DNA of 63,837 bases, counting the filler, from Raillietiella orientalis (lineage: Eukaryota), in assembly GCA_036172245.1 (NCBI GenBank). It is 4 parts of 4 records of this genome, joined end to end, with 100 filler letters (N's around TTAATTAATTAA, not from the genome) between each part and the next. Parts side by side here need not be neighbours in the genome. Positions count along the whole stretch, not along the records: positions 53,937 to 63,837 come from JAYWIR010000275.1; 3 more parts are not named here. One strand, given 5' to 3'. A program made the translations under genes and the position numbers. Under the pieces are notes generated by a model. The model saw only the letters and a program-made list of their open reading frames with translations, searched no databases and was not told the origin of the DNA. Positions 13,401 through 63,837 of this stretch are shown in pieces (position 1 is the stretch's first letter; the number at the start of each line of letters is the position of its first letter).

Positions 13401-14159
13401 CTTGCGGAGTACAAGGCGAGGGTTGAGCGTGAGGTTTGGCAGTCCGGAGCAGCATGCCTGTTGGACGAAAAGGGCCATAAATGCTCGACCCCAGCCGAAG
13501 TACGCCGGATTCTAAGACGCTACTACTTTTCGCTGTACGCGGAATCCCCGACGCAGGACATTCTCTCTGAGATACTCTTGTCGCAGGATGCTCCTGTCGT
13601 CGGCGAGAAGGAACGCGACCGTCTCAACGAGCCCTTTACGGCGGATGAATTCTCGTCCGCCATTGCTAAGCTGAAGAGACAAAAGGCGCTATGCAAGGAT
13701 GAACTGTTTGCAGAGTTTTACCAGTGCTTTGCAGTGGAGCTCACCTTCTTGATGCTGAGACTTACGACGCTGATGAGGGAATCCGGGATCGTCATGGATT
13801 CCTTCCGTTCAGCGAAGGTCCGTCTCCTGCCAAGAGGCAAAGACTGGCGTCAACTTAACTAGCGTGCGATCACCTTGGTGAACTCGTACGTCAAGTTGTT
13901 TTCCAAGCTGTGAGTAGAGCGGCTGAGAAGTATCGCAGAATTTGTGGTGAGTTCGGAACAAACCTTCGCGGTTCCCGGACGATCCATGGAGGCGAACATC
14001 CTTTTCGCGCGTAACTGCATGCAGCTGCAGCAAGTGGTTGCGCATTAAAGCCTTGCTGAAGCGAAAGTCGAGCCGCAAGCAAGAAGAACAGGCAGCGGAG
14101 GCAGCAGGGAACGTCAGGTGCTATAGCGGCTGCAGTCTTCCTTCACAAGGCGTTCGATT
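10405..14159 (+). mobile_element. Family X copy 2 (tandem with X1), interrupted in the RT domain by antisense element B
   Basis: Colinear with X1 from the 5' end (CGAGTGCGGACGTG) through ORF1, APE and RT up to ...CACAAGGCGTTCGAT (HKAFD). More disrupted than X1. Confidence 0.92.
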
Positions 14160-17100: not shown

Positions 17101-17486
17101 CTTGCAGAACCTTTGGACCGAGGCTTTAAAAAGATCCCAATCCAAAAGACTTTGGAGCGTGACGCCTCTCAGGAATTCGCGAAGGTGTTTCTTTGCACCT
17201 AAGAGTCGCGTCCAGTAACCCGGCAGACGCCACTCCCTGGTTGGCGGTCCCTTGTCACGAGGCCGCATCTCGAAAATTAACCTAGAATGGTCCGACAACG
17301 TCGACGCAACCCTCCCCCGTTTGCCGACCCGTGAACACAGGCCAGCATCGAGGAAGACGTGGTCGATGCTGCGGACCATTCCCCTCTCACCCACGAACAA
17401 GTTGCGCGCACGCTTGGCGGCGCACAACTCGTTCATCGTGTTCACATGTGTTTCCGGCTCACCTGTTAGCAGGCGGAGATTGAAAT
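14161..17486 (-). mobile_element. Tx1/L1-like element family B, ORF2 from the (G)DFN motif to the 3' end
   Basis: Minus-strand FNLRLL...SIDHVF...SDH, KPLGKDG, DLHTAFD, IRQDDSL, AYADD, HWGL...CFRCGERDSLPHLLVDC. The 3' end is AATAAACGCTCCGAGGAAATCCGGGTAA. The 5' side stops at ATTTCAAT (17486-17479), abutting the X3 3' end. Confidence 0.9.
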
Positions 17487-18000
17487 TTATCACCCGGTCA
17501 CGCCGGGGCGTTTATTAATAATGATAAACTCGTCAGGGACAATGTCCCCAACCAACAGAACTACAGGGAACATAGTGAAATTACCGGCACGCAGGCGTGG
17601 TGAACAAACCGCTTTCAGCGTGGGAGGAATGAGGGGAAACAAACAAAAATCAAAAACTGGAGGGATGGGTAACGGGTTTTTGGTTAGCCTCCGTACTCAC
17701 GGGGATTTAAACGGGGAGCACCTGAATGTTCCAGAGCCTATGGGGACGCGGCTGTAAAAGGAAAATACAAAATTAGTTCATTTAGGGTAGGGCAATGACC
17801 ACCGGGTTGGCCCCTGCTGAGCGTGTGTAAACCGGCGGTGTATTGCGGCGAGATTCCTTTTTGTCTCCTCTGTCGAATGAGGCCATCTAGCAAATGCTCC
17901 CATGTAGAAGGATGCTTTGCTGATTACCTCTTGGTGCTGTCCGTTGATTACCAACGCATGGTGGACGGAAACTATCGCGCGTATGCAACCGATGCTGTTC
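17487..18000 (-). mobile_element. Family X copy 3, 3' end (rest lost at the contig end)
   Basis: The reverse complement aligns with X1 ~9885-10396 (e.g. CATCGGTTGCATACGCGCGATAGTT, TTTAAATCCCCGTGAGTACG, CGCCCCGGCGTGACCGGGTGATAA). Confidence 0.93.
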
Positions 18001-18100
18001 NNNNNNNNNNNNNNNNNNNNNNNNNNNNNNNNNNNNNNNNNNNNTTAATTAATTAANNNNNNNNNNNNNNNNNNNNNNNNNNNNNNNNNNNNNNNNNNNN
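18001..18100. other. Artificial contig spacer (N run with TTAATTAATTAA linker)
   Basis: Exactly 100 nt: 44 N + TTAATTAATTAA + 44 N, identical to the two other spacers. Confidence 0.98.
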
Positions 18101-32300: not shown

Positions 32301-35300
32301 CAACCATTCTGATGTCTCACGATTGCGACCGAAATCATCGGGAACCGGCCATGGTCGTTTACGTGCAAGTGCGGAGATTTGGCGGGAAAACACCGCATTG
32401 GAAATAGAAAAAAGAGAGGAATTTTTTTGATGCACTTTGAAGATGCTATTTGGATGCAGCAAGTGAAAATAGATTGTTGCGAACCATTTTAATCTCTCAG
32501 GATTGCGACCGAAATAATCGGGAACCGGCCATGGTCGTTTACGTGCATGTGCGGAGATTTGGCGGGAAAACACCGCATTGGAAATAGAAAGAGAAAGGAA
32601 TTTTTTTGATGCACTTTGAAGATTCTATCTGGATGCAGGAAGTGAAAGTAGATTGCTTCCAACCATTCTGATGTCTCAGGATTGCGACCGAAATCATTGT
32701 GAACCGCCCATGGTCATTTAAGTGCAAGTGCGGAGTTTTTGCGGGAAAACACCGCATTGGAAATAGAAAAAAGAGAGGAATTTTTTTGATGCACTTTGAA
32801 GATTCTATTTGGATGCAGGAAGTGAAAATAGATTGCTTCCAACCATTCTGATGTCTCAGGATTGCCACCGAAATCATCGGGAACCGGCCATGGTCGTTTA
32901 CGTGCAAGTGCGGAGATTTGGCGGGAGAACACCGCATTGGAAATAGAAAAGAGCTAGGAATTTTTTTGATGCACTCTGAAGATTCTATTTGGATACAGGA
33001 AGTAAAAGTAGATTGCTTACAACCATTCTGATGTCTCAGGATTGCGACCGAAGTAATCGGGAACCGCCTATGGTCGTTTACGTGCATGTGCGGAGATTTG
33101 GCGGGAAAACACCGCATTGGAAATAGAAAGAGAGAGGAATTTTTTTGATGCACTTTGAAGATTCTATCTGGATGCAGGAAGTGAAAGTAGATTGCTTCCA
33201 ACCATTCTGATGTCTCAGGATTGCGACCGAAATCATTGTGAACCGCCCATGGTCATTTAAGTGCAAGTGCGGAGTTTTTGCGGGAAAAAACCGCATTGGA
33301 AATAGAAAAGTGAGAGGAATTTTCTTGATGCACTTTGAAGATTCTATCTGGATGCAGGAAGTGAAAGTAGATTGCTTCCAACCATTCTGATGTCTCAGGA
33401 TTGCCACCGAAATCATCGGGAACCGGCCATGGTCGTTTACGTGCAAGTGCGGAGATTTGGCGGGAGAACACCGCATTGGAAATAGAAAAGAGCTAGGAAT
33501 TTTTTTGATGCACTCTGAAGATTCTATTTGGATACAGGAAGTAAAAGTAGATTGCTTACAACCATTCTGATGTCTCAGGATTGCGACCGAAGTAATCGGG
33601 AACCGCCTATGGTCGTTTACGTGCATGTGCGGAGATTTGGCGGGAAAACACCGCATTGGAAATAGAAAGAGAGAGGAATTTTTTTGATGCACTTTGAAGA
33701 TTCCATCTGGATGCAGGAAGTGAAAGTACATTGCTTCCAACCATTCTGATGTCTCAGGATTGCGACCGAAATCATCGGGAACCGCGCATGGTCATTTAAG
33801 TGCAAGTGCGGAGTTTTGGCGGGAAAACACCGCATTGGAAATAGAAAAAAGAGAGGAATTTTTTTGATGCACTTTGAAGATTCTATTTGGATGCAGGAAG
33901 TTAGAATAGATTGCTTCCAACCATTCTGATGTCTCAGGATTGCGACCGAAATCATCGGGAACCGGCCATGGTCGTTTACGTGCAAGTGCGGAGATTTGGC
34001 GGGAAAACACCGCATTGGAAATAGAAAAGAGAGAGGAATTTTTTTGATGCACTTTGAAGATTCTATTTGGATGCAGGAAGTGCAAGTTGATTGATTCCAA
34101 CCATTCTGATGTCTCAGGATTGCGACCGAAATCATCTGTAACCGCCTATGGTCGTTTACGTGCAAGTGCGGAGATTTGGCGGGAAAACACCGCATTGGAA
34201 ATAGAAAAGAGAGAGGAGTTTTTTGATGCACTTTGAAGATTCTATCTGGATGCAGGAAGTGAAAGTAGATTGCTTCCAACCATTCTGATGTCTCAGGATT
34301 GCCACCGAAATCATCGGGAACCGGCTATGGTCGTTTACGTGCAAGTGCGGAGATTTGGCGGGAGAACACCGCATTGGAAATAGAAAAGAGAAAGGAATTT
34401 TTTTGATGCACTTTGAAAATTCTATTTGGATGCAGGAAGTAGAAATAGATTGCTTCCAACCATTCTGATGTCTCAGGATTGCGACCGAAATCATCGGGAA
34501 CCGCCCATGGTCGTTTACGTGAAAGTGCGGAGATTTGGCGGGAGAACACCGCATTGGAAATAGAAAAGAGAAAGGAATTTTCTGGATGCACTTTGAAGAT
34601 TCTATCTGGATGCAGGAAGTGAAAGTAGATTGCTTCCAACCATTCTGATGTCTCAGGATTGCGACCGAAATCATTGTGAACCGCCCAATGGTCATTTAAG
34701 TGCAAGTGCGGAGTTTTGGCGGGAAAACACCGCATTGGAAATAGAAAAGAGAGAGCAGTGTTTTTGATGCACTTTGAAGATTCTATCTGGATGCAGGAAG
34801 TAAAAGTGGATTCCTTACAACCATTCTGATGTCTCACGATTGCGACATAAATCATCGGGAACCGGCCATGGTCGTTTACGTGGAAGTGCGGAGATTTGGC
34901 GGGAGAACACCGCATTGGAAATAGAAAAGAGAGAGAAATTTCTTTGATGCACTTTGAAGATTCTATTTGGATGCAGGAAGTAAAAGTAGATTGCTTACAT
35001 CCATTCTGATGTCTCACGATTGCGACCGAAATAATCGGGAACCGGCCATGGTCGTTTACGTGCAAGTGCGGAGATTTGGCGGGAAAACACCGCATTGGAA
35101 ATAGAAAAGAGAGAGGAATTTTTTTGATGCACTTTGAAGATTCTATTTGGATGGAGGAAGTGGAAATAGATTGCTTCCAACCATTCTGATGTCTCAGGAT
35201 TGCGACCGAAATCATCGGGAACCGCCCATGGTCATTTAAGTGCAAGTGCGGAGTTTTGGCGGGAAAACACCGCATTGGAAATAGAAAAAAGACAGGAATT

Positions 35301-35988
35301 TTTTTGATGCACTTCGAAGATGCTATTTGGATGCAGGAAGTGAAAATAGATTGTTGCGAACCATTTTAATCTCTCAGGATTGCGACCGAAATAATCGGGA
35401 ACCGGCCATGGTCGTTTACGTGCATGTGCGGAGATTTGGCGGGAAAACACCGCATTGGAAATAGAAAAGTGAGAGGAATTTTCTTGATGCACTTTGAAGA
35501 TTCTATCTGGATGCAGGAAGTGAAAGTAGATTGCTTCCAACCATTCTGATGTCTCACGATTGCGACCGAAATCATCGGGAACCGCCCATGGTCATTTAAG
35601 TGCAAGTGCGGAGTTTTGGCGGGAAAACACCGCATTGGAAATAGAAAAAAGAGAGGAATTTTTTTGATGCACTTTGAAGATTCTATTTGGATGCAGGAAG
35701 TGAAAATAGATTGCTTCCAACCATTCTGATGTCTCAGGATTGCGACCGAAATCATCGGGAACCGGCCATGGTCGTTTACGTGCAAGTGCGGAGATTTGGC
35801 GGGAAAACACTGCATTGAAAATAGAAAAGAGAGAGGAGTGTTTTTGATGCACTTTGAAGATTCTATCTGGATGCAGGAAGTGAAAGTTGATTGATTCCAA
35901 CCATTCTGATGTGTCAGGATTGCGACCGAAATCATCGGGAACCGCCCATGGTCGTTTACGTGCAAGTGCGGAGATTTGGCGGGAAACC
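20337..35988. repeat. Tandem satellite array, ~180-bp monomer, about 87 copies, running off the contig end
   Basis: Consensus GGCGGGAAAACACCGCATTGGAAATAGAAAAGAGAGAGGAATTTTTTTGATGCACTTTGAAGATTCTATTTGGATGCAGGAAGTGAAAATAGATTGCTTCCAACCATTCTGATGTCTCAGGATTGCGACCGAAATCATCGGGAACCGGCCATGGTCGTTTACGTGCAAGTGCGGAGATTT, repeated head-to-tail with a few substitutions per copy and no unique spacers. Confidence 0.99.
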
Positions 35989-36088
35989 NNNNNNNNNNNN
36001 NNNNNNNNNNNNNNNNNNNNNNNNNNNNNNNNTTAATTAATTAANNNNNNNNNNNNNNNNNNNNNNNNNNNNNNNNNNNNNNNNNNNN
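35989..36088. other. Artificial contig spacer
   Basis: 100-nt N run with TTAATTAATTAA linker. Confidence 0.98.
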
Positions 36089-41399: not shown

Positions 41400-43215
41400 T
41401 AAGGTGAATGCGCGCTTCACGCTTGCAAATGTGATAGTAGTTAGAAATAATGAGCTTTAGGGTGGCTATTATAAGGTTTTCATTCCAAGTTCATCTTCAT
41501 TTTTAAAGTATTACAGGAATGGAATAGAATGAAAAATAATTTATGTGAAGTAATGTTTTAATTAGTAAAATCTCAGGTGAAATTACATTCTAAAGTAAGA
41601 TTATTATAAGGAATTCCGGAAAAATTTGTTGAAATTGTTTCTTAAAGACATTTTGTTATGAATAATCTAAGGTATGATGTGCTCGGTGTATCATAAAGAG
41701 CTGTGGCATATGGACTGTGCGAAGGTAGCTTAATAATTAGCTTTTCAATTGGTAGCCTGAATGAAGGATTGTATTAAGCAAGGCTGTCTTGTTTCGTGTA
41801 TTTGAATTCAATGTTATAGTGAGAAATCTCCGATGAATTTAAGGGAGGAGAAGTCCCTTTGGTACTAGTGTCCTTAGTGGAATTGAAAGAGTGGTTGTGA
41901 AATAAGATTTGAGCTTTCCCCTATTCCCACAAGGGGAGGGGTGAATTTATTTATCCCTTTTCCAATCACGCTACGTCGGCTCATTCACTTACTACTCACA
42001 CCACAAGTGTCACTGTTCGTTTCGTTTCTGCATTTAAGGAACATTGGTTGATGTCGTTGCCCGGGCGTCATCCTCATTCCTCTTCAGGATATGGCGGTAC
42101 GTCCAGGCCGGTGCTGGTCCACACTCCTTGATACCAACGTCCTTTTGGATTAGCCTTATCAGGATTTCCATCGGAGGAGCGGCTATCCTGGCGTTTTTCA
42201 TCTTCCACCACCTCACGAGTCTGGCGGTGATAAAAAGGGCAATGGTCGTCCTTACAATGGGTTTGTAACAGGGAGCATTTCCATTTCCCTGGAACATCCC
42301 GGCAAGTATTTGCATCACTGAACTGGTCGTAAGTCCTATGATCCTTTTCAAGATCAGCCGATCGCGAAGTAAGGTGGGACAGGTTAAGACATGTAGTCTC
42401 GTGTCGATGTCTCCACATGGCATGCAGTTTTCGTTTTCGCGTCTTCCCGTAATGTACTTCATTCCGTACCCAGTCGGGATTCCTCCGTAGTAGAACATTA
42501 GGAGGTTTTCCTGGGTGTCCGGCGGTAGGTCACTCCTCCAGAGTGTGGTGCCGATCGCCAGCAAGTTCATTCTATTGCTCCCGTAACCATCGGCGGCTCC
42601 TTGGATAGCACCGGTGTCCTGGTCTTCTTCTTTAATCAGACTTCTGAGGTTCTGCTTGCTATTCCCGGAACAAGCAAAGTCATTGCGGTTTTTCCACACT
42701 CCACGTGTCCTTTGGGTGAATCTATCCACCATCATCTTTATATATCGCAGTATACGGGTGTGGCGTGGGAACCCTCCTCTGTTCCATTCCTGGATTCGTT
42801 GTATGGTAACTCTGGGACGGTGGTATATCCAGCTCCTCGTGTGCGAGGGCACCTGCAGCATCCAAGGGATTAGATTTCAATGACGTTTTAATAGAATGTG
42901 ATCTGGGACGGATAGTGAAGAAGTGATCTTCATGGTTTCGTAGTTTCGTGTGAAATAAGAATCATCTCGAAATGAAGGAAACGTTGCCTAAGGGAGAGCA
43001 GCGTAATTTTAACGGAGTGTTCCACTTGGTATGAAATTTTGCGACCTCGATGCGCAATTGGGTATCTTCAAGATGAATAAGGTTTGCAGTAACAGTCTGT
43101 TCGACTGCAAATCCTACGTGATTTGAGTTTCGATCGGTGTCAGGCAGATTGGTTGCTTTCTTCCAATTCTCACATAGCTTCTGAGTACGAAAGGATTGGA
43201 AATTCGGAGTACTTT
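41400..43215 (+). pseudogene. rrnL: NUMT: mitochondrial 16S rRNA, interrupted by retroelement C3
   Basis: AAGGAATTCCGG, CTGTGCGAAGGTAGC, GGAGAAGTCCC, then after the insertion CCTAAGGGAGAGCAGCGTAAT, GCGACCTCGATG, GTCTGTTCGACT, CTACGTGATTTGAGTT and AGTACGAAAGGA. 5' boundary approximate. Confidence 0.85.
41915..42871 (-). mobile_element. 5'-truncated family C relative (C3) inserted in the rrnL NUMT
   Basis: ORF 42034-42861 (LAIGTTLWRSDLPPDTQENLLMFY, CMPCGDIDTRLHVLTC) is homologous to the C2 ORF2 C-terminus. The 3' end is AATAAATTCACCCCCTCCCCTTGTGGGAATAGGGGAAA. AGATTT occurs on both flanks (41905, 42872). Confidence 0.9.
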
Positions 43216-46289: not shown

Positions 46290-47778
46290 GCCAAGATAGT
46301 TTAATGAGAATAACGCTTTGTGGTATGGTTTTCACCCGGGTAAGCCGGGGCTTTTATTATTAAAAATTTTAGAATTATGTATTTTATAATAAAGTCCTGT
46401 CGTGTATTGTCTTCCGCCCTTCTGCTTTCCGACCGGTATGCCCGTAAGATCCTCTCCACTGCCGAAGGGGTCGGGAAAAAGTGAGAACAAAAAAAAAAAA
46501 AGAAAAACGCTTGGGGGACAATGTTTATGGGGAGGGAAGGGCAGAGAAGGGTTCACGGTACGCCGCACGGAGGCCTCAGCATCTAGTTCTGGATGCGAAC
46601 AAGTGCTGGCAGAATTTTACTAAGCCGGCGCCAACGGGAAGCCTTCTCCATGGAGATGACTGCCAAGTGGATGGCATTCCGACTGCTGCGGCCTCTTCTT
46701 GACGCGTTCCACTTGTCCAATATTCCTCGTATGCAGCAGAGAACTTCAACACACGCGGCACCTGACACGCAGTTCCGCATCAGGAGGAGACGAAAAATAG
46801 TTTTAGGGTCGCCCACAGGAACGTTTAGTGCCGAATAGGATCGATCGCACGTTCGGCGGAGCGCAACACATTCGATGAGTAAGTGGGAGAAGGTCTCCCT
46901 TTCCCCACACTCTGTACAATGGGCATCCAGTCTGCCCAATGTCCAGTGAGACAGGCGTGCTCTGCTCAAAAGTCCCCAATGGAGCACAAGCAGCGCCGTC
47001 TGCTGCCAATCAAAAGGGAGAGTGCCACTGTCCCAATACGCCGGAGGCCACTTCACCTCCTCCGGACGGATGCCGAGCAGCTCGCCCGAACGCACAATTC
47101 CATTTGGCGGGACACTCGGGGTTGTAGAGTCGGCTTGTTCCTGGGACGTCCACGCCATCATCAGTTTTTTCCTGCCTCCGATGAGGCAGGACACTTCCCA
47201 CGATGCCTCCTCTTGGCTGTCCCTGGCTTATCCGTGGGAGGGCAGCACGGGGGCAAGGGAGGTGAATGAAGCCCACAAAAGCTTTTTTGGGTTGGAAACG
47301 ATCTCCCGCAGGGGCTGGCCAGCGTTTCTGCCTCGACGGAAGCAGGAGAACTCCAGATCTCTGGAGTCGTTGATTTTTGCCCACGCGGAAACGGACTCCT
47401 GGAGCCAAGTAGTCCAGTTTGGAGTACTGCAGGAGATCCAAGGGTTGTTCTTCACCAGGGACACCAATTCTCGTAGCTGAAACCCACAATGATTAAGTCT
47501 ACCGTCGTTGGCTACTAGGATTGAGGTCAATCTGTTGCCCTGTGGGTGAGGAGTCGTGCGGGCGCACACCATGGTGCTGTCCAATATTTTGCCACAAGGG
47601 CAAGTTTCCTAATTTGGAGTTGCGCTCCATGCACTCCAACGTCAGCAGACCAAGTCCACCGTCGCTGCGTGGAGAGCACAAGCCTTTCAGTGGGACGCGG
47701 GGCCTCGCGGTACCCGAAAGGGTTCTCCCGTGGGGTTCCTTGTCCGGGCCCTTTGTGGTGTGGTAGGTCGTTATTGGC
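46290..47778 (+). tRNA. trnH: NUMT tRNA-His split by element D (halves 46290-46329 and 47765-47778)
   Basis: GCCAA...TTGGC acceptor stem reconstituted across the insertion; TTGTGG (GTG) anticodon; lies immediately before nad5. Confidence 0.7.
46330..47750 (-). mobile_element. 5'-truncated Tx1/L1-like element D with a 14-bp TSD
   Basis: ORF2 C-terminus (RPRVPLKGLCSPRSDGGLGL; HWGL...CTECGERETFSHLLIEC). The 3' end is AATAAAAGCCCCGGCTTACCCGGGTGAA. TSD: CTTTGTGGTATGGT (46316-46329) / CTTTGTGGTGTGGT (47751-47764). Confidence 0.92.
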
Positions 47779-47779
47779 G

Positions 47780-49320
47780 TTGAATTATATAGTGGTGTTA
47801 TTAAGGATAATGGTTGTAAATGTTGGTTTGTGACTTGTCTGTTGAAGTAGGATGGTATTAATTGAACGATCATTGGTAAGGCTGAGAGGAGAAGATTGAG
47901 GTTTGTTGTTTATTTTGGATGCTAAGTGTTTATTGTTTCTAAGGTATGTGATGGTTATTTCTTTTTTAGTTATGATATACAGTTTCGAATATATGGAGTG
48001 GAAGAAGAAGTGATTTTTTATATTCGTATTTCGGTTTGTAGTGAGAATGCCATTATTAATTATGAATAATAGTTTAGTGACTATTATTTTGGATTGCGAT
48101 GGATTGGGTATTATTTCTTATTGTCTGGTTATTTTTTCTATGAATTGTGGTTCTAATTATGGAGGTATGACTACTTTTTCGACTAATGGTATTGGAGATG
48201 GTATTTTATTGAGGGAGGGTAGTTGAGTTTTTGAGAGATTAGGTATTAACGGTTGATGTTTTTTGGTAGCGGTGTTAATTAGAATGACTCAGAGTGCACA
48301 GTTGCCGTTTAGTGCGCGGTTACCGTAGGCTATGGGAGCACCTACTCCGGTTTCAGCTTTAGTACATTCGTCAACGTTAGTAACTGCGGGAGTGTATTCA
48401 ATGATTCGGTTTAATGAAATTGGGATGGTCAGTAGTATGGTGGTTAATGGTGTATTCGGTGATGATGGGTAGGATAGAGGTTGATGTCAAGAAGATTATT
48501 GCATACTGGATGTTGAGGCAATTGGGTATGATGTTCGTGGGGCCAGGGTTGGGTATGGTAGGATGTTGGTATATTATCATTTATTGATTCGCGCTGTATT
48601 TAAATCGTGTCTGTTTTTATGTGCGGGATTCGTTATTCATACGTATGATGGGGGGAAGGATTTGCGAGTTATGGGGGGTAGAGGGACAGGGAATGTAGTT
48701 TTGGGTGTTATTTATAACGTTAGGATTGTGGGGTTTCCTTTCATGAGAGGTTATTGTAGAAAAGATTATTAAGTGGAATGAATAGGATATTCAATGTGGG
48801 GCGGTGCAGTAGAAATTTTGATTTTTCTTGGGTTAGTGTTGCCTGTGATTTATGGGTATCGGATGTTGGGTGGATTGATAGGGGGTGTAAATGGCGTAGA
48901 GAGGGGTGTTGGGATCGATATTCTGTTGTGGTAATGGGGTTAAATTTCGTGGTAGCGGTAGGGGGTAGAATGATTCTGGAAGGGATTGAGGGATTTACGT
49001 TTTCTTCAATGGAAAAATGTGCAACGATTGGAAGGGTATTTATTGGTTTCTTGTTTGTAGGTGTTGCGAGTTTTGTATTTGGCGGTCGGGCATATGTAAT
49101 GCTGATTATGGGTTTGCAAATTGATGGGAAGGCTAATATTAAGGAATTGGTTAATCCGTGTTAGTATAGTTGTGGAGATAATTGATAAGGGTTGAATGGA
49201 GTGAGGGTGTGTGTGGTAGGTGGCGGTGACTGTACGATGTTGTGGGTAGGAAGAGTATTCTGTCAAATGTTATGGAAAGTGAATATTTTATTGCTTATTT
49301 TGTTATGTGTTATTCAGGAA
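47780..49320 (+). pseudogene. nad5: NUMT: nad5
   Basis: [48 protein letters not shown] and HLLIRAVFKSCLFLCAG. Confidence 0.92.
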
Positions 49321-51559: not shown

Positions 51560-51754
51560 GGGCAGGTTAGGGGAACACGTGGTGAATGAAGGCAGAGTAA
51601 CGTAGCGTCGTATTATATTACCGTGCTACTGTTGGTAGCACCTCCTGGTTGGAGCAATGGCACCCTCCCCTTGGATTGGCAGGAGACGGCGCTGCTTGTG
51701 ATCCATTGGGGGCTTCTCTGCAGAGTACGCCTCTGTCAGTGCACCCGTGGGAGT
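51560..51754 (+). mobile_element. Short Tx1-like ORF2 C-terminal fragment F
   Basis: GTLPLDWQETALLVIHWGLLCRVRL, near-identical in motif to element D (GTLPFDWQQTALLVLHWGLLSRARL). Confidence 0.75.
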
Positions 51755-53836: not shown

Positions 53837-53936
53837 NNNNNNNNNNNNNNNNNNNNNNNNNNNNNNNNNNNNNNNNNNNNTTAATTAATTAANNNNNNNN
53901 NNNNNNNNNNNNNNNNNNNNNNNNNNNNNNNNNNNN
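53837..53936. other. Artificial contig spacer
   Basis: 100-nt N run with TTAATTAATTAA linker. Confidence 0.98.
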
Positions 53937-56203
53937 AGTATCTTTGGTAGAAGTACTCCGTTCCACAGGTTGGCTCTTCGCTTCATGTTAAAGTCCGCTC
54001 GGGTGTACTTTGCTGCTTCTTTGGCCGTTTTCCCCAGGATTTCCGTCCACAGCAGTTTCGACGCAGAGTCGTCGCCGATGTAGACTCCCAGGTACTTGGC
54101 CGTCTCCACCGTGCGGAATCCATTCCCCGTGAGAGTGGAGAGGTTCAGGATTCCGACGGGCAAAAGCTGGCTCTTTTGGGCGTTGATTTTCAAGCCCAGT
54201 CCCTGTTCCATGAGGTCGACCACATCCAGGAACGCTCGTTGACTCCTCTCTCCCTTGATGAAGAAGAGGAGATCATCTGCGTATGCCAGATGGGTCAGGT
54301 GCTGACCATCAATGGAAATCCCTGATAGACGACCGCTTCTCTCGATGTAAGAAGACAGCGCCTCCATGTATATGACGAACAGCATTGGACTTAGCGAGTC
54401 GCCCTGCCGGACTCCTCGTTCCATCCTAATTGCTGCCGTCTCTTGGCCGTTGATTTTGATACGGCAGTACTGGTTTTGGAGTACCGCCCTCACGAAGTTG
54501 CTGAAGTGTTCCGGAAGCCCAAGCTTCTCCAGAACCTTCAGCAGCATCCCGTGGTCGATGGAGTCGAAGGCCTTCTCCATGTCGGTGAACACCAGCACCA
54601 GGTTCTCGCCGACGTATCGGCTGAGACCGACGGTGGCCTGGGCACACTTAACATTGTCAGACATGTGTCGTCCTGGGACTGCACACGTCTGGACCGGAGA
54701 GATCAGCCTCGACATGACCCTGCCTAAGCGGTTGGACCAGATCTTCGCCAACCACTTGGCATCTGAGTTTAGGATCGAGATCGGCCTCCATTGAGCGATC
54801 TGCGTGAGATCGCCTCCTTTTGGCAGCAATCTCATCCTACTCTCGTAGAAGGATTCCGGAAGTCGTCCTTCTTCTCGGATGCAGAGTGTCAACTGGTGGA
54901 ACAAACGCAGGTAGGCGTGCAGGTACCGCTGATAGTGCGAGATGGGTACACTATCAGGGCCTGCTGCCACATCCTTGCGAAGCTGCCCAAACGCAGTCTT
55001 CACTTCCTCTTCGGAGAACTCCTCCTCCAGTCTATTTCTTTGGAGGTCGTCCGTCCTCTTCTCGAGGTAACCCAGGAAGGCTTGCTGACTCGAGCGGCAG
55101 AGATCTTGTCGTCGGAAGTGTCTCGCGTAATGCCTGTGAAAGGCTTCCGCGATATCCTCCGACGTGTGCCGCTCTTGGCCGTCGTACTGGATGCAGAAGA
55201 TATCTGTGGCCAGATTCCTCTTTTCCAGCACGCCGACCTCCCCTTTCGTGTTCTGGAAGACGTACCGACTCTCGTACTGATCGAAGTACTTCGAGAGGGA
55301 GCGATCTTGGATGTTCAGCTCCCGGTACGCTTCCTGCCTCATGCGCTTACAGAAGTACTGCATATTGCAGAACAGATGGATTCTGTGCTTCAACCGGTCC
55401 CAGTCGGCGACCCTGCGGATGGTAGTATCTTGCAGGATCGCCTCGATGACTTCCTGGTGACCGGGAAGCGTTTCGAACCAGGCGGGCATGCAGATGAGCG
55501 CCGCCCTGGTGGCCTTTTCTTTACGAGGATTCTCAGTGCGGAGTGTAAACCGTACCAATGGGTGATCGGACAACAGGTGTGGGATGTCACGAAAACCCTG
55601 GATGCGGTTGTCTATCTCCGCACTGTGGAGGACGTGATCGATCGGCTTGTGGCTAGCTGTTCGCCACACAAGTCCGAACTCGTCGGACAGCCGCCGATAC
55701 GCCGCTCTTCCTCTTGCATCCTGAGAATATTTAATTTCATCCAGGATGTTGAAATCCCCAGCGACGATAACTATGTCCTTCGGTGCCACTCGTTTGCGGA
55801 GTTCTTCTTGCAGCTTCTCCGCGCACCGATGCTTGATCTTGTGCGGTCCGTAGACGTTCACCAGGAAGAGGTGAACGTTACTGGACCAGGACAGTCGCAC
55901 GCCGATTACTCTGCCAGGTACCGGACAGAAGGTTTCCAAAATGGTGTGGGCGAGCTCGTTCTTGATGAGGATCGCCACCCCCATGGTCTTCTTCTGTCCC
56001 TCGCTGGCGAACAGTTGTCCGTCGAATCGGCGTTCCATCTCCAGGGCGTTCTGTTGCCCGAGACGGTGGATTTCTTGGAGGCACACCACATTAAATTTTG
56101 CGATGGTCCGCATGATGATCTTTCTCTTTCCCTGGTCCGTCAGTCCATTCACATTCCAGGAGGCGATGTTAATCCTCCTGGCACTGGACAGCGACGAGGC
56201 CAT
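53937..56203 (-). CDS. C1 ORF2 (APE endonuclease + reverse transcriptase), uninterrupted up to the gap
   Basis: IASWNVNGL, LQEIH, NVYGP, AGDFN, IDH, SDH; AAGPD, QWRPISILNSDAK, DMEKAFD, GVRQGDSLSP, AYADD, KYLG. No stops. Confidence 0.93.
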
Positions 56204-56218
56204 GAAAGGGGGGGAGTC

Positions 56219-58150
56219 CTACTTCACCTTTCTTGCCTTCCTTAGCTTCTTCTGCTGGGGAGACTTATTCAGTTTCCCTGCTGAAGAAGTGGGTTTTTCA
56301 CTGCCGGCATCACTCTCGGTGCCGGTGTGATCAGTGGACTCCTGTTCGTCCACAGAGCGTTCCGCCTTGGCGACCACCTTGCGCGGAAGGGTCTCCAGCG
56401 AGACCGTCGCACAGAATGCCGCCTTGAGGTCGCCTAACTGATCCTCCAACTTTTCCCGCTCTCTTTCTACAACCATGCGGTTGACGTCGTCTTGGACCTC
56501 ACAGATGCGGTCCAGGATTTTTGTCTGTTCTGCCTCCGGTTGGCCCTGGCGAACCTCTTCCGCCAGTTTTATCACTTCCTCGGAGAGTTGCAGGGCCTCC
56601 TGCGTCTGCGTGACTGGTTCTGGCGTCTTCTCCTCCTTCTCCGTTTCCTCCGCCACCTCCATGCTCTTGCCTACCACTGCTTCAACTACCGGGGTTTGAG
56701 GAATCTGATGCTCCCTTGCGAGCATCTTCCTTTTCCCCTTCTTCCCCACCTTCACGAAACCGTCCGCCGAAACCGGAGCGGCCTCTCTTGCTTTCCTCTG
56801 TTTTGCTAGCTGAGGTTTGATTACCTCAGCTAGCACCCTTTCCCTCACTTGGGACTCTCCTCTAATCGTCCGGTAGTTTGCATACTCCGGACAACTCCAT
56901 TTCGCATGCCCTGGTTGCTTGCAGAAGGAGCAAAGCTCGAGCATGCTACAGTTCCGGACCTGGTGGCCCTGTTTCCCGCACCTGAAGCAGCGAGATCTAG
57001 GGCAGGCACCCATCCGGTGGCCAAAGTCCTTGCAACCGAGACAGAAGATCGTTTGCTGGCGGTACCTGACGTTCACCTCTTGCGAGGCTTCGTCAATGTG
57101 CAGCAAACCCGGGATTTGGGCACCTTCCTTAAGTTTAATATTGGCGAATACTTCGCCCGAGAAGATGTCTCCGAAGATGTTCTGGAAGTTTACATCCAAA
57201 ACCTCCCCGTATTTCTCCAGGAAATCCCACACCGTTTTTTATTCGGTGAAGATTCCCACTCCGCTGAGATGGACGGTGGTGTAACGCATTTCGCCTACGC
57301 CTTGTACCATTTTGCCTTGAATATTGATACCCTTTTCGATTAGGGCCTCCCGCAATTCTTCGCAGTCCGTGTACAGTGTAACACCTGACGTGCTAGGAAT
57401 GATCGCTTGGAGACGATCAAAGTCGACGTTGGTTTCAAAGTGAGCACAGTACACCTCTCTTACATTATTAAACCGGATCAATCCGGTCTTGAACATAATT
57501 GGTTTCGACGCTAGACTTAAGCCAACCATTGGTTCTTTGCATCGCGTGATGCGTCCAGTCGTCGGCTTCTTAAATGTTCGGTTTGGCTGGGCAGAGGCCT
57601 GCCCCGCCGTAACCGCCGCATACGAAAACGGCTTTGTAGCCGAACCCGAACAAGATGGCGTCGCCATGTACGCCGCGTGGACGCCCGGGGCTCCCGCCTG
57701 GGATGCCGCCGCCGCCGCTGCGGGCGCAACCCTCGTCGTCGCCGTCGCCGATGTCGCCGTAGGCGGGACCTTCGGCATCGCCGCCGCCGGCACGACCTTC
57801 CCCGCCGCGGGCGCGATCCTCGGCGTCGCCGCCGCGGGCACGACCTCCATCGCCGTCGCCGCGGGCACGACCCTCGGCATCGCCGCCGCCGGCGCAGCAA
57901 AGCCTGCCGCGGGCGAGACCCTCGGCGTCGCCGCTGCCTCCTCGCCACTGCCGCATATTACCTCCATGTGTTCTTCCATGGGGGTCGACGGCTGCTCCAC
58001 TTCCTGTAGGTGCCTCCTTGCGGCTGCCGTTGCTGCCGCACTTCCTGTTTGGAGGACTTCCACCTCGGGTCCTTCGGCGCTGCTGCTGCTGCTGCTGTCG
58101 GGTATTTCCCTCGGTGGCACAGTCACTTCCACACTATTCTTCACCAGGCA
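56219..58150 (-). pseudogene. C1 ORF1 with three CCHC knuckles and a single nonsense codon
   Basis: CLGCKDFGHRMGAC, CFRCGKQGHQVRNC and CSFCKQPGHAKWSC. TAA at 57239-57241 sits where C2 has Gln. Ala-rich repeats at ~57700-57935. Confidence 0.88.
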
Positions 58151-58152
58151 CT

Positions 58153-58269
58153 TGCCCTGTGAGGGCACACAAAAATTGCCGCGGCAGTGGTTTTACGCAC
58201 TGCCTTGGCGGGGTATTGGGTAAAGTTTTCAACTAGCAATAATCGCGGCTCAGTCGCCTTCCTCGCCTA
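58153..58269 (-). ncRNA. U4: U4 spliceosomal snRNA sequence lacking its first ~23 nt
   Basis: TAGGCGAGGAAGGCGACTGAGCCGCGATTATTGCTAGTTGAAAACTTTACCCAATACCCCGCCAAGGCAGTGCGTAAAACCACTGCCGCGGCAATTTTTGTGTGCCCTCACAGGGCA. Contains the metazoan U4 core GCGATTATTGCTA(A/G)TTGAAAACTTT..CCAATACCCCGCC, the kink-turn 5' stem-loop, the central stem GGCAGTG/CACTGCC, the Sm site AATTTTTG and the terminal hairpin TGCCCT-CAC-AGGGCA. Confidence 0.93.
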
Positions 58270-58430
58270 TTTTCCCCAGGTCCCACAAGGGGTGGGGTAA
58301 ATTTATTTTCTGTAAAACATTCACACTACAATCACATTCATACACTTCAACTTTTCCTCATTTGTCACTGGTCACTTTGGCACTTGTGCTTAAAGTTCAC
58401 TTCTGGGCGTCTGAAAAGTCACTGCTCTAC

Positions 58431-61400
58431 TTACCTTGGATCCGCTTGGGTTCGGAGACTTCCTTCTATCCTTCTCAGGATGTGTCGGTAGTTCCAAACT
58501 TGCACTCGTCCGCAGTTTCGGATGCCAATCTCCTTCTGGATCAACCCTTGCAGGATCTCCATCGGAGATATGGCAGTCCTCGTGGTCCTCATCTTCCACC
58601 ACCGCACAAGGATGGCGGTGATGAAAAGGGCGATGGTCACTCTGACCATGGGGTTGTAGCGTGGAACTGTTCCAGTTCCCTGGAACATTCCTGCCAGAAC
58701 GTCCATGGTCGAGGCGTTGTTCAGCCCGATGACCCTTTTCAGGGTTGTCCACTCGGATTGCAATGTGGGGCAGGTCAAGACGTGTCTACCTGAATCCAAT
58801 CCACCACATGCTTTGCAGGTTTCTTCTTCTCGTCGTCCCGTGAAGAGCTTCATTCTCGTGCCACACAGGATCCCCCCATGATAGAACATGAGGAGATTGT
58901 CCTGTGTATCGGGTGGTAGGTCACTCCTCCATAGCACCGTACCGATCGCTAGTGGATTGAATCCACTGCTTGCGTATCGGTCGGCAGCATCTTGGAGGGC
59001 ACTGTGGTCTTGTTCTTCCCTGATGATGTCCTTCCTGTTCTTCTTCGTTACCCTGGACCACGCATGGTTAGGATGGCTTTTCCATACCTCGCGGGTCTTC
59101 AGGGTAACGGATCCACTCATCCTTTCCACGTGACGAAGTACCCGTGAATGATGAAGGTATCTTCGCCGTGTCCAGGATTCCAATTCTCCGAAGGTAACTC
59201 TGGACCGCTGGCGTATCCAGCTCCTCGTGTCATCCTGTACGGGGAGCATCCAAGGGATAACCAGGATGGATTCCTCCTGCCAGAGTTCCTTGCTTCTCGG
59301 GATGATCTTGATTCCCTCGCTCTTGATCAGTCTTTGCTTCCGCCTCCACGTTGGGTCGATGGTTGACCATTCGTCCACTCTGCCGACGAGCGCAGTCATC
59401 AGGCCCCTCGAGTTATTAATTAACAACGAGTATGCCCTATGCGCCGCGTACGGCCAGTCGTCCCAGTTGGAAGACATCTCCAGGATGTGTCGCACGTCCA
59501 TGTTGTTCACGGCGTGTGCAGGCGACTTCATCCCGGTTCCTCCCTCCTCCCTTGGACGACAAAGTGGCTTCAGGCGTACTCTAGGACGGTATCCTCCCCA
59601 CAGGGTCTTCCTCTGCAGCTTTTCCACTTCTCGCTTGGTGTCTTTCGACATGTTGCTGAAGGCCGCTCCGAAAAGTACCTTCGGAAGGAGAACTCCATTC
59701 CAAAGGTTGGCCCTCTGCTTCATGTTGAAGTCCGAGCGCGTGTACTTCGCTCCTTCTTCAGATACTTTCCCCAGGATTTCCTTCCACAACAGTTGGGATG
59801 CGGATGCATCACCAATGTGGATACCTAGGTACTTGATCGTGTCCACCGTACGGAAACCTTCACTCACGAGTGTTGTGAGGTCCAGGATGCCGACGGGCAA
59901 GAGTTTGCTTTTCTGGGCATTGATTTTAAGCCCCAATCCTTTCTCCATGAGCTCAACCACATGCAAGAAGCCTCGCTGATCTCTCTCCCCTTTGAGAAAG
60001 AAGAGAAGGTCGTCCGCGTAGGCGAGATGGGTGAGTCTCTGTTGGTCCACTTTGATTCCTCGGAGATACCCGGTTCTGTCGATGAACGACGAGAGGGCCT
60101 CCATGTAGATGACAAACAGCATCGGACTTAGCGCGTCGCCCTGACGGACTCCGCGTTCCATCCTGATGGCTGCTGTCGCTTCCCCATTGACGGTGATGCG
60201 GAATTCTTGGTCTTGTAGGATCATTCGCACGAAGTTGCGGAAGTATTCTGGGAGGCCCAGTCTTCCTAGAATCTCCAGCAGCATCTCATGGTCCACCGTA
60301 TCGAAAGCCTTATCCATGTCAGTGAAGCCTAGTACCAAGCTCTCGCCGATATATCGGCTGAGTCCAATGGTAGCTTGATGACACTTGACATTGTCCGACA
60401 TGTGGCGTCCAGGCACCACACATGTTTGGACCAGAGAGATCGGCCTCGGCATGACCTTGCCGAGGCGGTTGGCCCAGATCTTCGCCAACCACTTGGCATC
60501 GGAGTTGAGGATCGAGATTGGCCTCCATTGGGTGACCTGCGTGAGGTCGCCTCCTTTTGGTAACAATCTCATCCTACTCTCATAGAAGGATTGCGGTAGT
60601 CGTCCTTCTTCCCTGATGCGTAGCGTCAGCTGGTGGAACAAACGCTGGTAGGCATGCAGGTACCGTTGATAGAGTGAGATGGGAACATTATCAGGGCCCG
60701 CTGCCACATCCTTGAGAAGGTCCTTGAACGCAGCTTTCACTTCTTCGGAGATTTCCTCTCCCAGTATCTTTCGATTCTTTCCATCGACTCGTTTCTCCAG
60801 ATGTTTCAGAAAGCTATTTTCGTATAATTTGCACAGATGTCTGCGTCGGAAGTGTTCCACGTAATGCCTCTGGAAGGCTTCAGTGATGTCTTCCGACGCG
60901 TGCCTGGCACGACCATCGTACTGGATACAGAAGATATCTGTTGCCAGATTCCTCTTCTCCAGCATTCCCACTTCTCCCTTGATGCTTTGGAAGACGTACC
61001 GACTCTCGTACTGTTGCCAGTATTTCGAGAGGGAGCGATCTTGGATGTTCAGCTCCCGGTACGCTTCCTGCCTCAATCTCTTGTCCCCGAACTGCATGTT
61101 GCAGAAGAGGTGGACACGATGTTTCATGCTATCCCAGTCGGCGACTCTGCTGATGGTGGTCGACTGCAGAATCGCCTCCACGAGCTCTTGGTGATAGGGA
61201 TGGGTCTCGAACCATTGGGGCATGAGAGAATTGCCTCCCTCGTTGCCTGAGCCATGTCGAGGGTGTTTTCTGTCCGCAAGGTGAACCTCATCAACGGATG
61301 ATCGGACACAGAGTGGGGAGTGTCTCGAAAACCGAGGACTCGGTTCCCAATGTCGGCACTGTAGAGGACGTGGTCGATCGGCTTGTGGCTCGCAGTCAGC

Positions 61401-61939
61401 CACTGAAGTCCGAACTCGTCGGAAAGCCGCCGATACGCCTCCCTTCCTCTGACGTCCCGGGAATAGATGACTTCATCCAGGATGTTGAAGTCCCCAACGA
61501 TGATGACGATGTCCTTCGCCTGCACTTTCTGGCGGAGGGCTTCATGAAGCACCTCCGCGCACTGGTGCTTTAGGTGGTGCGGCCCGTAAACGTTCACCAG
61601 GAAGAGGTGAACGTTCGCGGACCAGGACAATCGTGAGACGAGAATTCTTCCAGGGACGGGACAGAAGACTTCCAGGATGGTGGCGGCAAGGTGGTTCTTG
61701 ATTGCCGTTGCCACCCCCATGGTGTACCTCTGTCCCACGCTGATGAACAGTTGGACGTTCATTCGTCTCTCCAATTCCAGGCTGATCTGCTGCCCCATCT
61801 CGTGGGTTTCCTGCAGGCAAACGATGTCGAAGTGCCTGATCTTGTGGGCCTTTCTTCCAGTTAAGTTCCCTCTTGCATTCCATGCCAATGACCAGAGGCG
61901 AGATGGTCAGTCTCCGGCTGTCGACAAGGATGAGGCCAT
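58431..61939 (-). pseudogene. C2 ORF2 (APE-RT-C-terminal Zn finger), two lesions in the APE region and otherwise open
   Basis: WNARG, LQETH, NVYGP, VGDFN, SDH; QWRPISILNSDAK, DMDKAFD, GVRQGDALSP, AYADD; CKACGGLDSGRHVLTC. Frameshifts near 61880 and 61240. Confidence 0.92.
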
Positions 61940-61949
61940 AAAGGGGGTG

Positions 61950-63809
61950 TTAATTTTTGCCTTCCTCAGCTTCTTTTGGCGGGGAGACCTTTCTTCTTAC
62001 CGCCGTCGAAGCTGGCTTCTCACTCCCGGCATCGCTCTCTGTGCCGGTGTGGTCTGTCGTATCGTTGTCGTGTTCGCTGGAGCGCTCGAGCTTGGCAACT
62101 GTTTTGCGCGGAAGGTTCTCCAGAGAGACCTTGGCGCAGTAGTTCGCCTTTACGATGTAGAGCTTGTTCTCCAGCCTGCCGCGTTCTTCCGGGTCTATGA
62201 GGGCGTTGATTCCCTCTTGTGTTTCACCAATGCGTGACAGGAGCTTCGCCTGCTGCACTTGGTTCACCTCCGTCTGTACTTCCTCCGCCAGCTTCACCAC
62301 CTCCTCGGTGAGCTGCGCCGCCTCTTGCGAAGCCGGGGTAGCTTCGGTGATTTCCATCACCTCAGCTTCCGGCACTCCCTTCTGCGCAACAACCTCCTGC
62401 TGTTGCTCCACTACCTCGCCAACCGCCTGCTCGCCAACCGCCTGCTCGCCAACCGCCTGCTCGCCAACCTGCTGCATCTCCTCGCCTACCTGCTTCTCGG
62501 CCTGTGCAGAGGAGGAGGATTCGGGCTCCCTCACGAGCATCCTCCTCTTGCCGCCCTTCCCCACCGTCGTAAAGCCGTCCTCAGAAACGGGAGCGGCCTC
62601 CTTCGCCTTCCTCTGCTTCAGTGCTCTCTGAGGCTTGATCACCTCTTCGAGCACTCGCGCCCTGACCGGTGACTGGCCCCTCATCGTCCGGTAATTGGCA
62701 AACTCGGGGCAGCACCATTTTGCGTGCCCTGGGGCCTTGCAAAATGAGCATACCTCCGGCATGCTGCAATCACGGACTTGGTGGCCTTGCTTCCCACAGC
62801 GGAAGCATTTCGATCTGGGACAGACACGCTGCCTGTGGCCAAATGATTTGCAACCGTTGCAGAAAACGGGTTGCGCCCTGTATCTCACAGAGACTCCCTG
62901 ATCGTCACCCTCGAAATGGATGGTTCCAGGAATCTGGGCATCCTCCAACAGCTTCATCCTTACCGTCGCTTCTCCCGAAAAGATCTTCCCCGAAATGTTG
63001 TGGAAATTGCTGTCCAGTACCTCGCCGTACTGTGACAGGCGTTTCCACACCGCCTTCTGTGTAATAAACGGCCCTAGCCCGCTCAGAAAAACGGTGGTGT
63101 ACGGCATTTCGCCAACTCCACACACCATTTTTCCCTGGATGTTGATTCCGGTTTCAATCAACGACTGCCGGAGTTCTTCACAATCGGTGTAGATCGTGAA
63201 CCCGAATGGCCCGGGCACGATCGCCTGAAGCTTATCAAAGTCTACCTGTTGCTTGTACAGCGCCAGGTAGACTTCCCGAATGTTGTGCATTCGTATTAAA
63301 CCGGTCCTGAACGTGACCGTCTTCACGTTTGGGCCCAACTTGACGATGGGCTCGTCAACGTCCCTAATGGGCCCGGACTCGGGCTTCCCAAATTTTCTCT
63401 GCGGCTGGGTTGTTGCCGTCCCAGCCGCCACCGCTGCATAAGAAAATGTTGCCGCCGCCGGCGGCCGCCCCACGGTCGCAGCCGCCGCCGCGCAAGATGG
63501 CGTCGCGTCATTAGCAACGGTTGGGCCTAGGAGCCTTGCCGTTGCTAGGGGCGCTTCCGCCGTCGCCGCCGCCTTCGCAGCCACCACCGTGGCCTGCCTT
63601 GCCTCCACCACCGGTGTGGCGCCAGAAACACACGATTGCCCTACCTCCATGGGCTGAGGCTTCTCCGTGGTTCCCATCCACCGCTGTTCTTGCATCTTGA
63701 CGGGGTGCTGCTGCACCGCCGCCGGGGAGGGTCGCGACTCCTCCACCTTGGACTCCCTCTGGCTGCTGCTGCTGCAGTTGCTGTGGGACGTCCTTGGTTG
63801 CGCACTCAC
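61950..63809 (-). CDS. C2 ORF1, intact, three CCHC zinc knuckles
   Basis: 619-codon open frame with CNGCKSFGHRQRVC, CFRCGKQGHQVRDC and CSFCKAPGHAKWCC. True start uncertain (first ATG ~63695). Confidence 0.9.
   Translation of the reverse strand: MSAQPRTSHSNCSSSSQRESKVEESRPSPAAVQQHPVKMQEQRWMGTTEKPQPMEVGQSCVSGATPVVEARQATVVAAKAAATAEAPLATARLLGPTVANDATPSCAAAAATVGRPPAAATFSYAAVAAGTATTQPQRKFGKPESGPIRDVDEPIVKLGPNVKTVTFRTGLIRMHNIREVYLALYKQQVDFDKLQAIVPGPFGFTIYTDCEELRQSLIETGINIQGKMVCGVGEMPYTTVFLSGLGPFITQKAVWKRLSQYGEVLDSNFHNISGKIFSGEATVRMKLLEDAQIPGTIHFEGDDQGVSVRYRAQPVFCNGCKSFGHRQRVCPRSKCFRCGKQGHQVRDCSMPEVCSFCKAPGHAKWCCPEFANYRTMRGQSPVRARVLEEVIKPQRALKQRKAKEAAPVSEDGFTTVGKGGKRRMLVREPESSSSAQAEKQVGEEMQQVGEQAVGEQAVGEQAVGEVVEQQQEVVAQKGVPEAEVMEITEATPASQEAAQLTEEVVKLAEEVQTEVNQVQQAKLLSRIGETQEGINALIDPEERGRLENKLYIVKANYCAKVSLENLPRKTVAKLERSSEHDNDTTDHTGTESDAGSEKPASTAVRRKVSPPKEAEEGKN
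62415..62470. repeat. 15-bp tandem repeat (about 3.5 copies) encoding EQAVG in C2 ORF1
   Basis: CTCGCCAACCGCCTG repeated; absent from C1. Confidence 0.9.
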
Positions 63810-63827
63810 TGTTTTTCACTATTCACT

Positions 63828-63837
63828 TGCCCTGCGA
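63828..63837 (-). ncRNA. Probable last 10 nt of a second U4 snRNA sequence (window edge)
   Basis: TGCCCTGCGA vs TGCCCTGTGA at 58153-58162. Both are followed on the minus strand by AGTG and then element-specific sequence. Confidence 0.55.

Follow-up and report, generated by a model that had tools for sequence, protein, structure and literature searches.

A family of LINEs joined to U4 snRNA sequence in Raillietiella orientalis: candidate insertion into U4 with putatively RNA-derived 5' junctions

The stretch of DNA analyzed here (the window) comprises 63,837 bp, linkers included, from the genome of Raillietiella orientalis (assembly GCA_036172245.1) and contains a fragment of U4 small nuclear RNA (snRNA) sequence lodged between two long interspersed nuclear elements (LINEs), C1 and C2, that we place in one family, family C. 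The window is composed of four contig pieces of 18000, 17888, 17748 and 9901 bp joined by identical linkers, across which no feature is to be read (Table 1). The U4 locus lies on the 9.9-kb piece (53937-63837), which has repeats at both of its ends. The U4 fragment, C1 and C2 all occupy the minus strand and so share one orientation, and along this strand the order is the end of U4, C2, U4 from about nucleotide (nt) 24 to its 3' end, and C1. There is nothing but U4 nt ~24-end between the 3' tail of C2 and the 5' end of C1, as the C2 tail finishes on the minus strand with ...GGGGAAAA at 58270 and U4 opens with TAGGC... at 58269. Both of the LINE 5' ends that are visible (2/2) start with AGTG directly after ...CAGGGCA. 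An earlier reading of this DNA, hereafter the original prediction, had described U4 as the sole sequence between C2 and C1 and had both elements starting at CAGGGCA-AGTG, a description that is upheld here.

The identity of the U4 fragment is established by covariance models. A cmscan search of the 63.8-kb window, run both at the gathering threshold and at an expect value (E) of at most 1, returned the same single Rfam match each time, which is to U4 (RF00015, gathering score 46) at 58155-58292 on the minus strand with 61.6 bits and an E of 2.7e-11; no second U4, ribozyme or other Rfam family was found in the window, element ends included. When positions 58100-58272 were scanned alone, the U4 match became 5'-truncated, spanning model positions 21-138 with 56.6 bits and an E of 1.6e-12. 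Because model positions 1-20 had been aligned to the 3' tail of C2 with low posterior and contributed only 5 bits, we take the U4-derived part to be the 117 nt at 58153-58269. The cmscan alignment places within it the conserved single-stranded core, the central stem-loop, the Sm-site-like AAUUUUUG and the 3' hairpin, while the basal helix of the U4 5' stem-loop is not intact, its 5' strand being replaced by AAA. The interval is therefore a fragment of U4 and no complete gene, and it lacks model positions 1-20, the part of U4 that base-pairs with U6. Two claims of the original prediction are thereby confirmed: that this interval is U4, for which the RF00015 match exceeds the gathering threshold, and that the break falls at nt ~24, since the truncated match begins at model position 21. 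The idea that the family-C tail mimics U4 nt 1-20 is not supported, given the mere 5 bits and low posterior; the resemblance of the last ~22 nt of the tail (58271-58292 and 41916-41938, both minus) to these model positions is probably due to chance. Additionally, a weak match to mir-34 inside the U4 fragment (16.4 bits) was discarded as noise.

The sequence at the element 5' ends is repeated with precision. The window contains two exact copies of CAGGGCAAGTG and no more, one at 58149-58159 and the other at 63824-63834, both on the minus strand. The count alone is within chance, as 22 of 100 shuffled sequences reach two matches at one mismatch, and thus the weight rests on where the two matches lie, each at the 5' end of an element. 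Position 63837 ends the window and perhaps also the contig, and the 10 nt of sequence that precede C2 are consistent with U4, being too short to serve as proof.

Both elements retain the organization of a LINE with two open reading frames (ORFs). The original prediction had C2 as a full-length element of 5.6 kb, which its measured length of 5558 bp bears out; its endonuclease and reverse transcriptase lie in different frames, so that this copy has either a single frameshift near 61.2 kb or a misassembly there. C1 is incomplete because the contig piece stops at 53937, inside ORF2; it has one in-frame stop in ORF1, and keeps endonuclease and reverse transcriptase open together in one ORF of 772 amino acids (aa) (E of 1.4e-16 and 9.1e-34, respectively). 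A further observation is that CATGGAGGTA is kept in C1 (57955-57975, minus) and C2 (63640-63660, minus), some 170-190 nt into each element, and it may mark the true start of ORF1.

The layout typical of LINEs with an apurinic/apyrimidinic (APE)-type endonuclease is found in family C, with an N-terminal Exo_endo_phos domain followed by the reverse transcriptase (in one ORF in C1 and in two frames in C2), and no zf-RVT domain was detected in the family. Among 1.84 billion representative proteins the closest relatives of ORF2 are 28-35% identical, with the named ones coming from an alga, a plant and a turtle; a separate ORF2 protein search gave nothing above 32% identity, and a protein atlas returned only generic reverse transcriptase clusters. 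The nearest solved structure to the family-C ORF2 is human L1 ORF2p (E 5.2e-52). The ORF extending from U4 into C1 ORF1 gave no match when used as a protein query. On these sequence similarities family C belongs to the APE-type LINEs of the L1/Tx1 superfamily, for which the label of Tx1 clade is only putative.

Table 1. Coordinates of the features discussed, counted along the whole window
Feature	Position	Strand	Description
C2	58270..63827	-	Full-length LINE, 5558 bp; AGTG start, conserved hairpin and AAAA at end
C2 ORF1	61950..63809	-	619 aa as listed; CCHC zinc knuckle
C2 endonuclease	61124..61888	-	APE-type (Exo_endo_phos, E 2.1e-14)
C2 reverse transcriptase and C-terminal region	58431..61403	-	990 aa (RVT_1, E 1.3e-31)
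C2 3'-terminal hairpin	58274..58297	-	Same hairpin in C3 at 41918-41941
U4 snRNA fragment	58153..58269	-	nt ~24 to 3' end; cmscan RF00015
C1	53937..58152	-	Second family-C LINE; complete 5' end (AGTG), cut within ORF2
Last 10 nt before C2 5' end	63828..63837	-	TCGCAGGGCA; 9/10 match to U4 3' hairpin end (58153-58162)
C3	41908..42948	-	5'-truncated family-C copy, 1041 bp, in non-U4 DNA on another contig piece
C3 target-site duplication, 5' copy	42949..42960	-	12 bp, TCTTATTTCACA on minus strand
C3 target-site duplication, 3' copy	41896..41907	-	12 bp
B-type 3' end / LINE 5' end junction	10370-10410 (10398/10402)	+	
B-type 3' end / LINE 5' end junction	17470-17510 (17478)	-	
Assembly linkers	18001-18100, 35989-36088, 53837-53936		N44 + TTAATTAATTAA + N44; 100 bp each, identical

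C1 and C2 are 74.9% identical over 2513 nt, and in the reverse transcriptase (531 codons) the synonymous divergence (dS) is 1.02 and the nonsynonymous divergence (dN) 0.168, giving a dN/dS of 0.16; the corresponding ratio is 0.27 for the endonuclease (228 codons) and 0.22 for the C-terminal region of C2 compared with that of the third copy, C3. ORF1 was left out of these comparisons, as the alignment contains a stop or frame problem. Given such purifying selection, together with only one disabling lesion per copy in C1 and in C2, the two are separate lineages that diverged while active and subsequently inserted. A tandem duplication followed by neutral decay is ruled out by a dN/dS of 0.16-0.27 at a dS of about 1, and a single template-switch accident is likewise ruled out because two separately evolving lineages carry the identical junction between U4 and element 5' end. 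The U4 piece is thus no one-off chimera, in agreement with the original prediction, as it is C1 and C2, at a dS of about 1, that stand behind the same CAGGGCA-AGTG junction.

The third copy, C3, delimits the 3' end of the element and reveals how the family behaves away from U4. It ends in ...GGGGAAAGCTCAAA, and the last ~50 nt are common to C2 and C3, ending ...CCCCTTGTGGGA...GGGGAAA, such that the 3' end of family C can be written ...GGGGAAA(A/G) from these two copies. Directly after the common tail C2 continues with TAGGC..., that is U4, whereas C3 continues with GCTCAAA and then DNA unrelated to U4. Since the tail shared by C2 and C3 ends at the hairpin and the sequences then diverge, U4 is flanking DNA and not the tail of the element. 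The terminal hairpins of C2 and C3 are no more stable than those of shuffled sequences (z of -1.2 and +0.16), and the support for this structure therefore comes down to a single compensatory pair, A-U in C2 versus U-A in C3. The 12-bp direct repeat around C3 is exact, and its only 2 matches in the window are the two that flank C3, with 0 expected by chance. As C3 lies in non-U4 DNA, family C is able to insert outside U4 and its specificity for U4 is not strict; additionally, the 12-bp duplication indicates that the normal target-site duplication of the family is short.

Data outside of the assembly provide one further candidate junction. We aligned the Logan contigs of run X1, which derives from the same organism and possibly from the source sample of the assembly, to the window at a likeness of at least 80%. 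This run matches 0.57 of the sampled words and is the only one to match the stretch among the 3 public runs listed; no RNA run was listed as matching it. One X1 contig aligns to exactly 58269, the first base of U4, and resumes at 58546 in ORF2 of family C, which suggests that it represents another C copy with a different 3' untranslated region that is joined to U4 at the same base. Two other joints (58309 to 58506 and 58309 to 58545), whose shorter sides measure 30 and 21 letters, may miss U4 and are not counted. X1 contigs that cover C2 show 0-3 differences from it and one extends to the U4 boundary, while at the other end of the window one X1 record runs 19 letters past 63834; none of the X1 records listed spans the U4 junctions at high identity. 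Searches for the junctions elsewhere were negative. The motif formed by the U4 end and AGTG occurs in metagenomes at 70 loci that are chance matches, 8 of them from one project, and the junction of tail and U4 has a single chance match among prokaryote genome contigs, on a Kribbella contig. None of the 71 loci with a junction motif exhibits protein or DNA similarity to family C, and none of the 16 scanned with Rfam contains U4.

To account for these observations, we propose that family C is an APE-type LINE that inserts, preferentially and not exclusively, between U4 nt 23 and 24, with the U4 sequence upstream of each element gained through RNA, a proposal on which our own confidence is evenly balanced. 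Insertion would follow the orientation of the U4 gene, with a bottom-strand nick at U4 nt 23/24 as the start of target-primed reverse transcription, and would leave U4 nt 24-end directly behind the conserved 3' hairpin tail; given that the precise junction of C tail and U4 nt 24 has been seen twice, such a nick is the simplest account. The U4 sequence in front of each full-length element would then derive from RNA rather than from a staggered cut of ~120 bp. Two features favor an RNA origin, namely that the stagger at C3 is 12 bp and that the junction falls just past the terminal hairpin, where the RNA ends. The original prediction had allowed for either a ~120-bp staggered cut or a U4 head carried by the transcript, and with a 12-bp duplication at C3 the first has become the less likely of the two. 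RNA could contribute U4 in either of two ways. A read-through transcript of U4 and element, initiated at the U4 promoter, may serve as the template, or the reverse transcriptase may jump from the element 5' end to the 3' end of U4 snRNA. The identical 5' junctions in 2/2 copies lean slightly toward an inherited read-through junction, although the two routes appear inseparable on the strength of sequence alone. Under either route the U4-complementary end of the cDNA could anneal to U4 nt 1-23, which stay behind upstream of the nick, and this pairing would rebuild a whole U4 and permit a second insertion. A rebuilt U4 would thus enable C2 to enter later in front of C1, and the order U4 end, C2, U4(24-end), C1 would result with C2 as the later arrival.

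A more ambitious version of this proposal holds that family C makes its living in U4 genes, rebuilding an intact U4 with every insertion and using the U4 promoter for its read-through transcript. We regard this version as tentative and unlikely. The conserved first ~25 nt of family C might on this version also provide a 3'-end signal, in the manner of 3'-box motifs, for the rebuilt U4. The claim of the original prediction that these elements regenerate U4 likewise stays a prediction, for the window displays no U4 nt 1-23, promoter or complete U4.

Several points weigh against the proposed insertion at U4 nt 23/24. The evidence comes from one 9.9-kb contig piece and one short-read X1 contig, and in that contig the flank measures at least 63 letters. 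Because the assembly piece stops inside C1, it lacks the 3' flank of this element, at which a second U4(24-end) is predicted by the model, and just 10 nt are visible upstream of C2. In addition to the parts of U4 named above, no native U4 3' flank is visible in the window. The window has two family-C 3' ends, that of C2, which adjoins U4 nt 24, and that of C3, which is off target. Summed contig depth indicates that family C is low-copy, such that a census of its insertions may stay small. Finally, contig piece 1 has head-to-tail arrays of other LINE families in which the elements are not separated by any small-RNA gene, and because of such arrays tandem LINEs in this genome need no U4 target.

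This last point bears directly on the alternative that survives best, a concatemer that arose as the enzyme jumped serially from template to template, U4 genes not being targeted at all. U4 would be an RNA-derived filler and the array could lie anywhere in the genome, with synthesis passing from the 5' end of C1 RNA to the 3' end of U4, exiting near nt 24 to C2 RNA and from there to U4 again in one or a few insertion events. Such a route would explain why every upstream partner has an intact RNA 3' terminus (the 3' hairpin of U4 and the tail of C2) and why both C elements have complete 5' ends; LINEs of other families on contig piece 1 abut 3' to 5' end with only 4 nt between, and both double template jumps (PMC2104539) and the addition of snRNA sequence to 5' ends (PMC4494074) are documented in the available parts of those reports. 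However, the concatemer needs a reproducible exit from U4 at nt 24 followed each time by the C tail, and a second contig breaks at that point too. There are no filler bases at either U4 junction as opposed to the 4-nt spacers of contig piece 1, and two lineages at a dS of about 1 would have to have been copied together. Furthermore, known snRNA/LINE chimeras have the reverse make-up, with a mostly full-length snRNA and a 5'-truncated LINE, as far as the accessible text of bioRxiv 10.1101/2025.02.02.635956 describes them. We consequently view the concatemer as improbable, though it deserves to be taken seriously.

Insertion specific to U4 with a true long target-site duplication has a lower standing. 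In this case one nick at nt 23/24 and another ~120 bp away, just beyond the 3' end of U4, would place the same U4 segment on both sides of C2, with which the visible 10 nt agree at 9/10 positions, and a precise second nick would fit the identical 5' junctions in 2/2 copies. Rotifer R9 reportedly makes a long target duplication and renews its target. However, the sole clean off-target insertion, C3, has a duplication of 12 bp, the mismatch in 1/10 nt would need a later mutation, and a second nick at the end of the mature RNA is a coincidence for a DNA cut where it is natural for an RNA end. We judge this explanation quite unlikely. Less likely still is one in which U4(24-end) is a 3' appendage of the element itself, acquired by 3' transduction or as an snRNA-derived tail, with head-to-tail stacks of units, each made of C plus its U4 piece, arising through recombination or because new units insert at C 5' ends. 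A unit running from AGTG to tail plus U4 would tile the contig exactly, and the second contig has U4 from the same base after C-like sequence; against this, C3 ends at its hairpin tail with no U4 and possesses its own target duplication, and the hairpin is kept at the very 3' end in C2 and C3, as expected where reverse transcription starts, all of which leaves the appendage a very doubtful candidate. Lastly, a single old fusion of U4 and LINE that tandem duplication or unequal crossing-over has since multiplied, or else an assembly artefact of a repeat-rich region, would fit a 9.9-kb piece that ends in repeats on both sides, comes from linker-joined pieces and has its U4 junctions bridged at high identity by no X1 record among those listed, but is hardly credible given that a dN/dS of 0.16-0.27 with a dS of about 1 and long open frames denotes divergence while coding and that X1 contigs match C2 with 0-3 differences, one of them to the U4 boundary.

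The remainder of the window contains additional repeats. On contig piece 1 only 4 nt separate the 3' ends of B-type LINEs (...CCCCGGCGTGACCGGGTGATAAA, including a hairpin) from the next LINE 5' end, which starts AATC. The full-length LINE B (AATCGAGTGC...) begins at 4450 and the same 5' end recurs at 10402; the copies at 4450-8208 and 10402-14157 are 85% identical. A LINE endonuclease ORF at 4027-4452 is cut exactly within its GDFN motif (GDF-N, at 4441-4452) by the 5' end of the B copy that begins at 4450, and B may target this conserved endonuclease-coding site, or the first bases of B may be derived from the target. Contig piece 2 is nearly filled by a 180-bp satellite (20337-35986) with 87 copies, 92% matches and a strong skew of G over C. 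LINE remnants that do not belong to family C lie at 46583-47194 and 47646-47792 on the minus strand, with a zf-RVT domain (E 2.8e-05) and a weak match to reverse transcriptase. There is also a 96-bp inverted repeat in G-skewed DNA (46941-47036 and 51649-51744, 82% identity) with arms ~4.6 kb apart, which could mark the ends of a DNA transposon.

Comparison with known systems shows which features of family C are familiar and which are not. Mutsu, a Tx1 element of ~5.5 kb, inserts ~20 nt into 5S ribosomal RNA (rRNA) genes and leaves a 5'-cut remnant downstream, according to the available part of PMC5340908. Family C resembles Mutsu and Keno (U2, Tx1) in being a two-ORF LINE of ~5.5 kb with an APE-type endonuclease, in its proposed insertion a few tens of nt behind the 5' end of a small RNA gene that is multicopy, in the same direction as that gene, and in leaving a 5'-cut gene remnant downstream (PMC5340908 and PMC4640811, as far as available). 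It differs from both in that its proposed target is U4 and that the target RNA sequence adjoining its 5' end is complete at the 3' end, and with relatives at most 35% identical its kinship to Keno and Mutsu is only putative. Utopia (NeSL, U2) targets an snRNA gene, as proposed for family C, and shares with it a precise 3' junction and tandem insertions; in contrast to Utopia, which uses a restriction-like endonuclease, family C has Exo_endo_phos. In Phytophthora, Utopia copies have intact U2 genes upstream and U2 nt 39-end downstream. Its authors attribute the intact upstream gene to deletion within arrays, and no element start at an snRNA 3' end is reported in the accessible portion of their text (PMC4640811).

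The 5' junction of family C also invites comparison with products of template switching. Tx1 machinery adds U1 or U2 sequence to 5' ends by this means, as stated in the available part of PMC4494074. Like U6/L1 chimeras and SINEU, the locus described here has an snRNA 3' end fused in sense to the 5' side of LINE-derived sequence, and those fusions have been explained by template switch or RNA ligation (PMC4494074 and bioRxiv 10.1101/2025.02.02.635956, each in its accessible part). Chimeras of the U6/L1 type are described there as having a mostly full-length snRNA, varied LINE truncation points, ordinary insertion sites and short duplications. In contrast, the C elements have a full 5' end, and U4 is cut at a fixed base where it abuts the 3' tail of another LINE. 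The proposed dependence on a target promoter recalls R1 and R2, for which RNA-borne target sequence aids precise 5' junctions (as cited in the available part of PMC4494074). R1, R2 and R9 differ from family C in that they target rRNA, with R2 and R9 using a restriction-like endonuclease, and a cmscan at E of at most 1 found only U4 in the window, and no ribozyme at the C 5' end.

Transposons of snRNA genes listed in 2015 were Keno and Utopia (U2), Dada-U1 and Dada-U6, according to the available part of PMC4640811, and the phrase "U4 snRNA" is absent from the 2022 survey of Dada elements (PMC8869645). According to the original prediction, U4 is not known to have been reported as a target, and this holds for the full-text literature, in which we found no transposon reported to target U4; Repbase and subscription journals fall outside that search. 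The results thus suggest that U4 is a new target among the APE-type LINEs that home to snRNA genes, with an unusual 5' junction.

Target-specific LINEs are rare outside of rRNA genes and microsatellites. Should the array turn out to be a concatemer, it would clearly illustrate how two LINE RNAs and one snRNA can be linked by serial jumps. If the proposed insertion into U4 is true, family C would supply a natural case of a 5' junction that carries the whole 3' part of the target RNA, and would bear on how APE-type LINEs finish their 5' ends, on the borrowing of snRNA promoters and on the tolerance of an essential, low-copy family of genes to a parasite of this kind. Because safe-harbour insertion is being pursued with site-specific LINEs, a new specificity is of practical interest, and rebuilding of U4 would amount to a self-renewing safe harbour in an RNA polymerase II snRNA gene. 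For the organism, the consequence would be that the host loses no U4 gene upon insertion, that the target renews itself and that arrays of U4 and LINE can grow.

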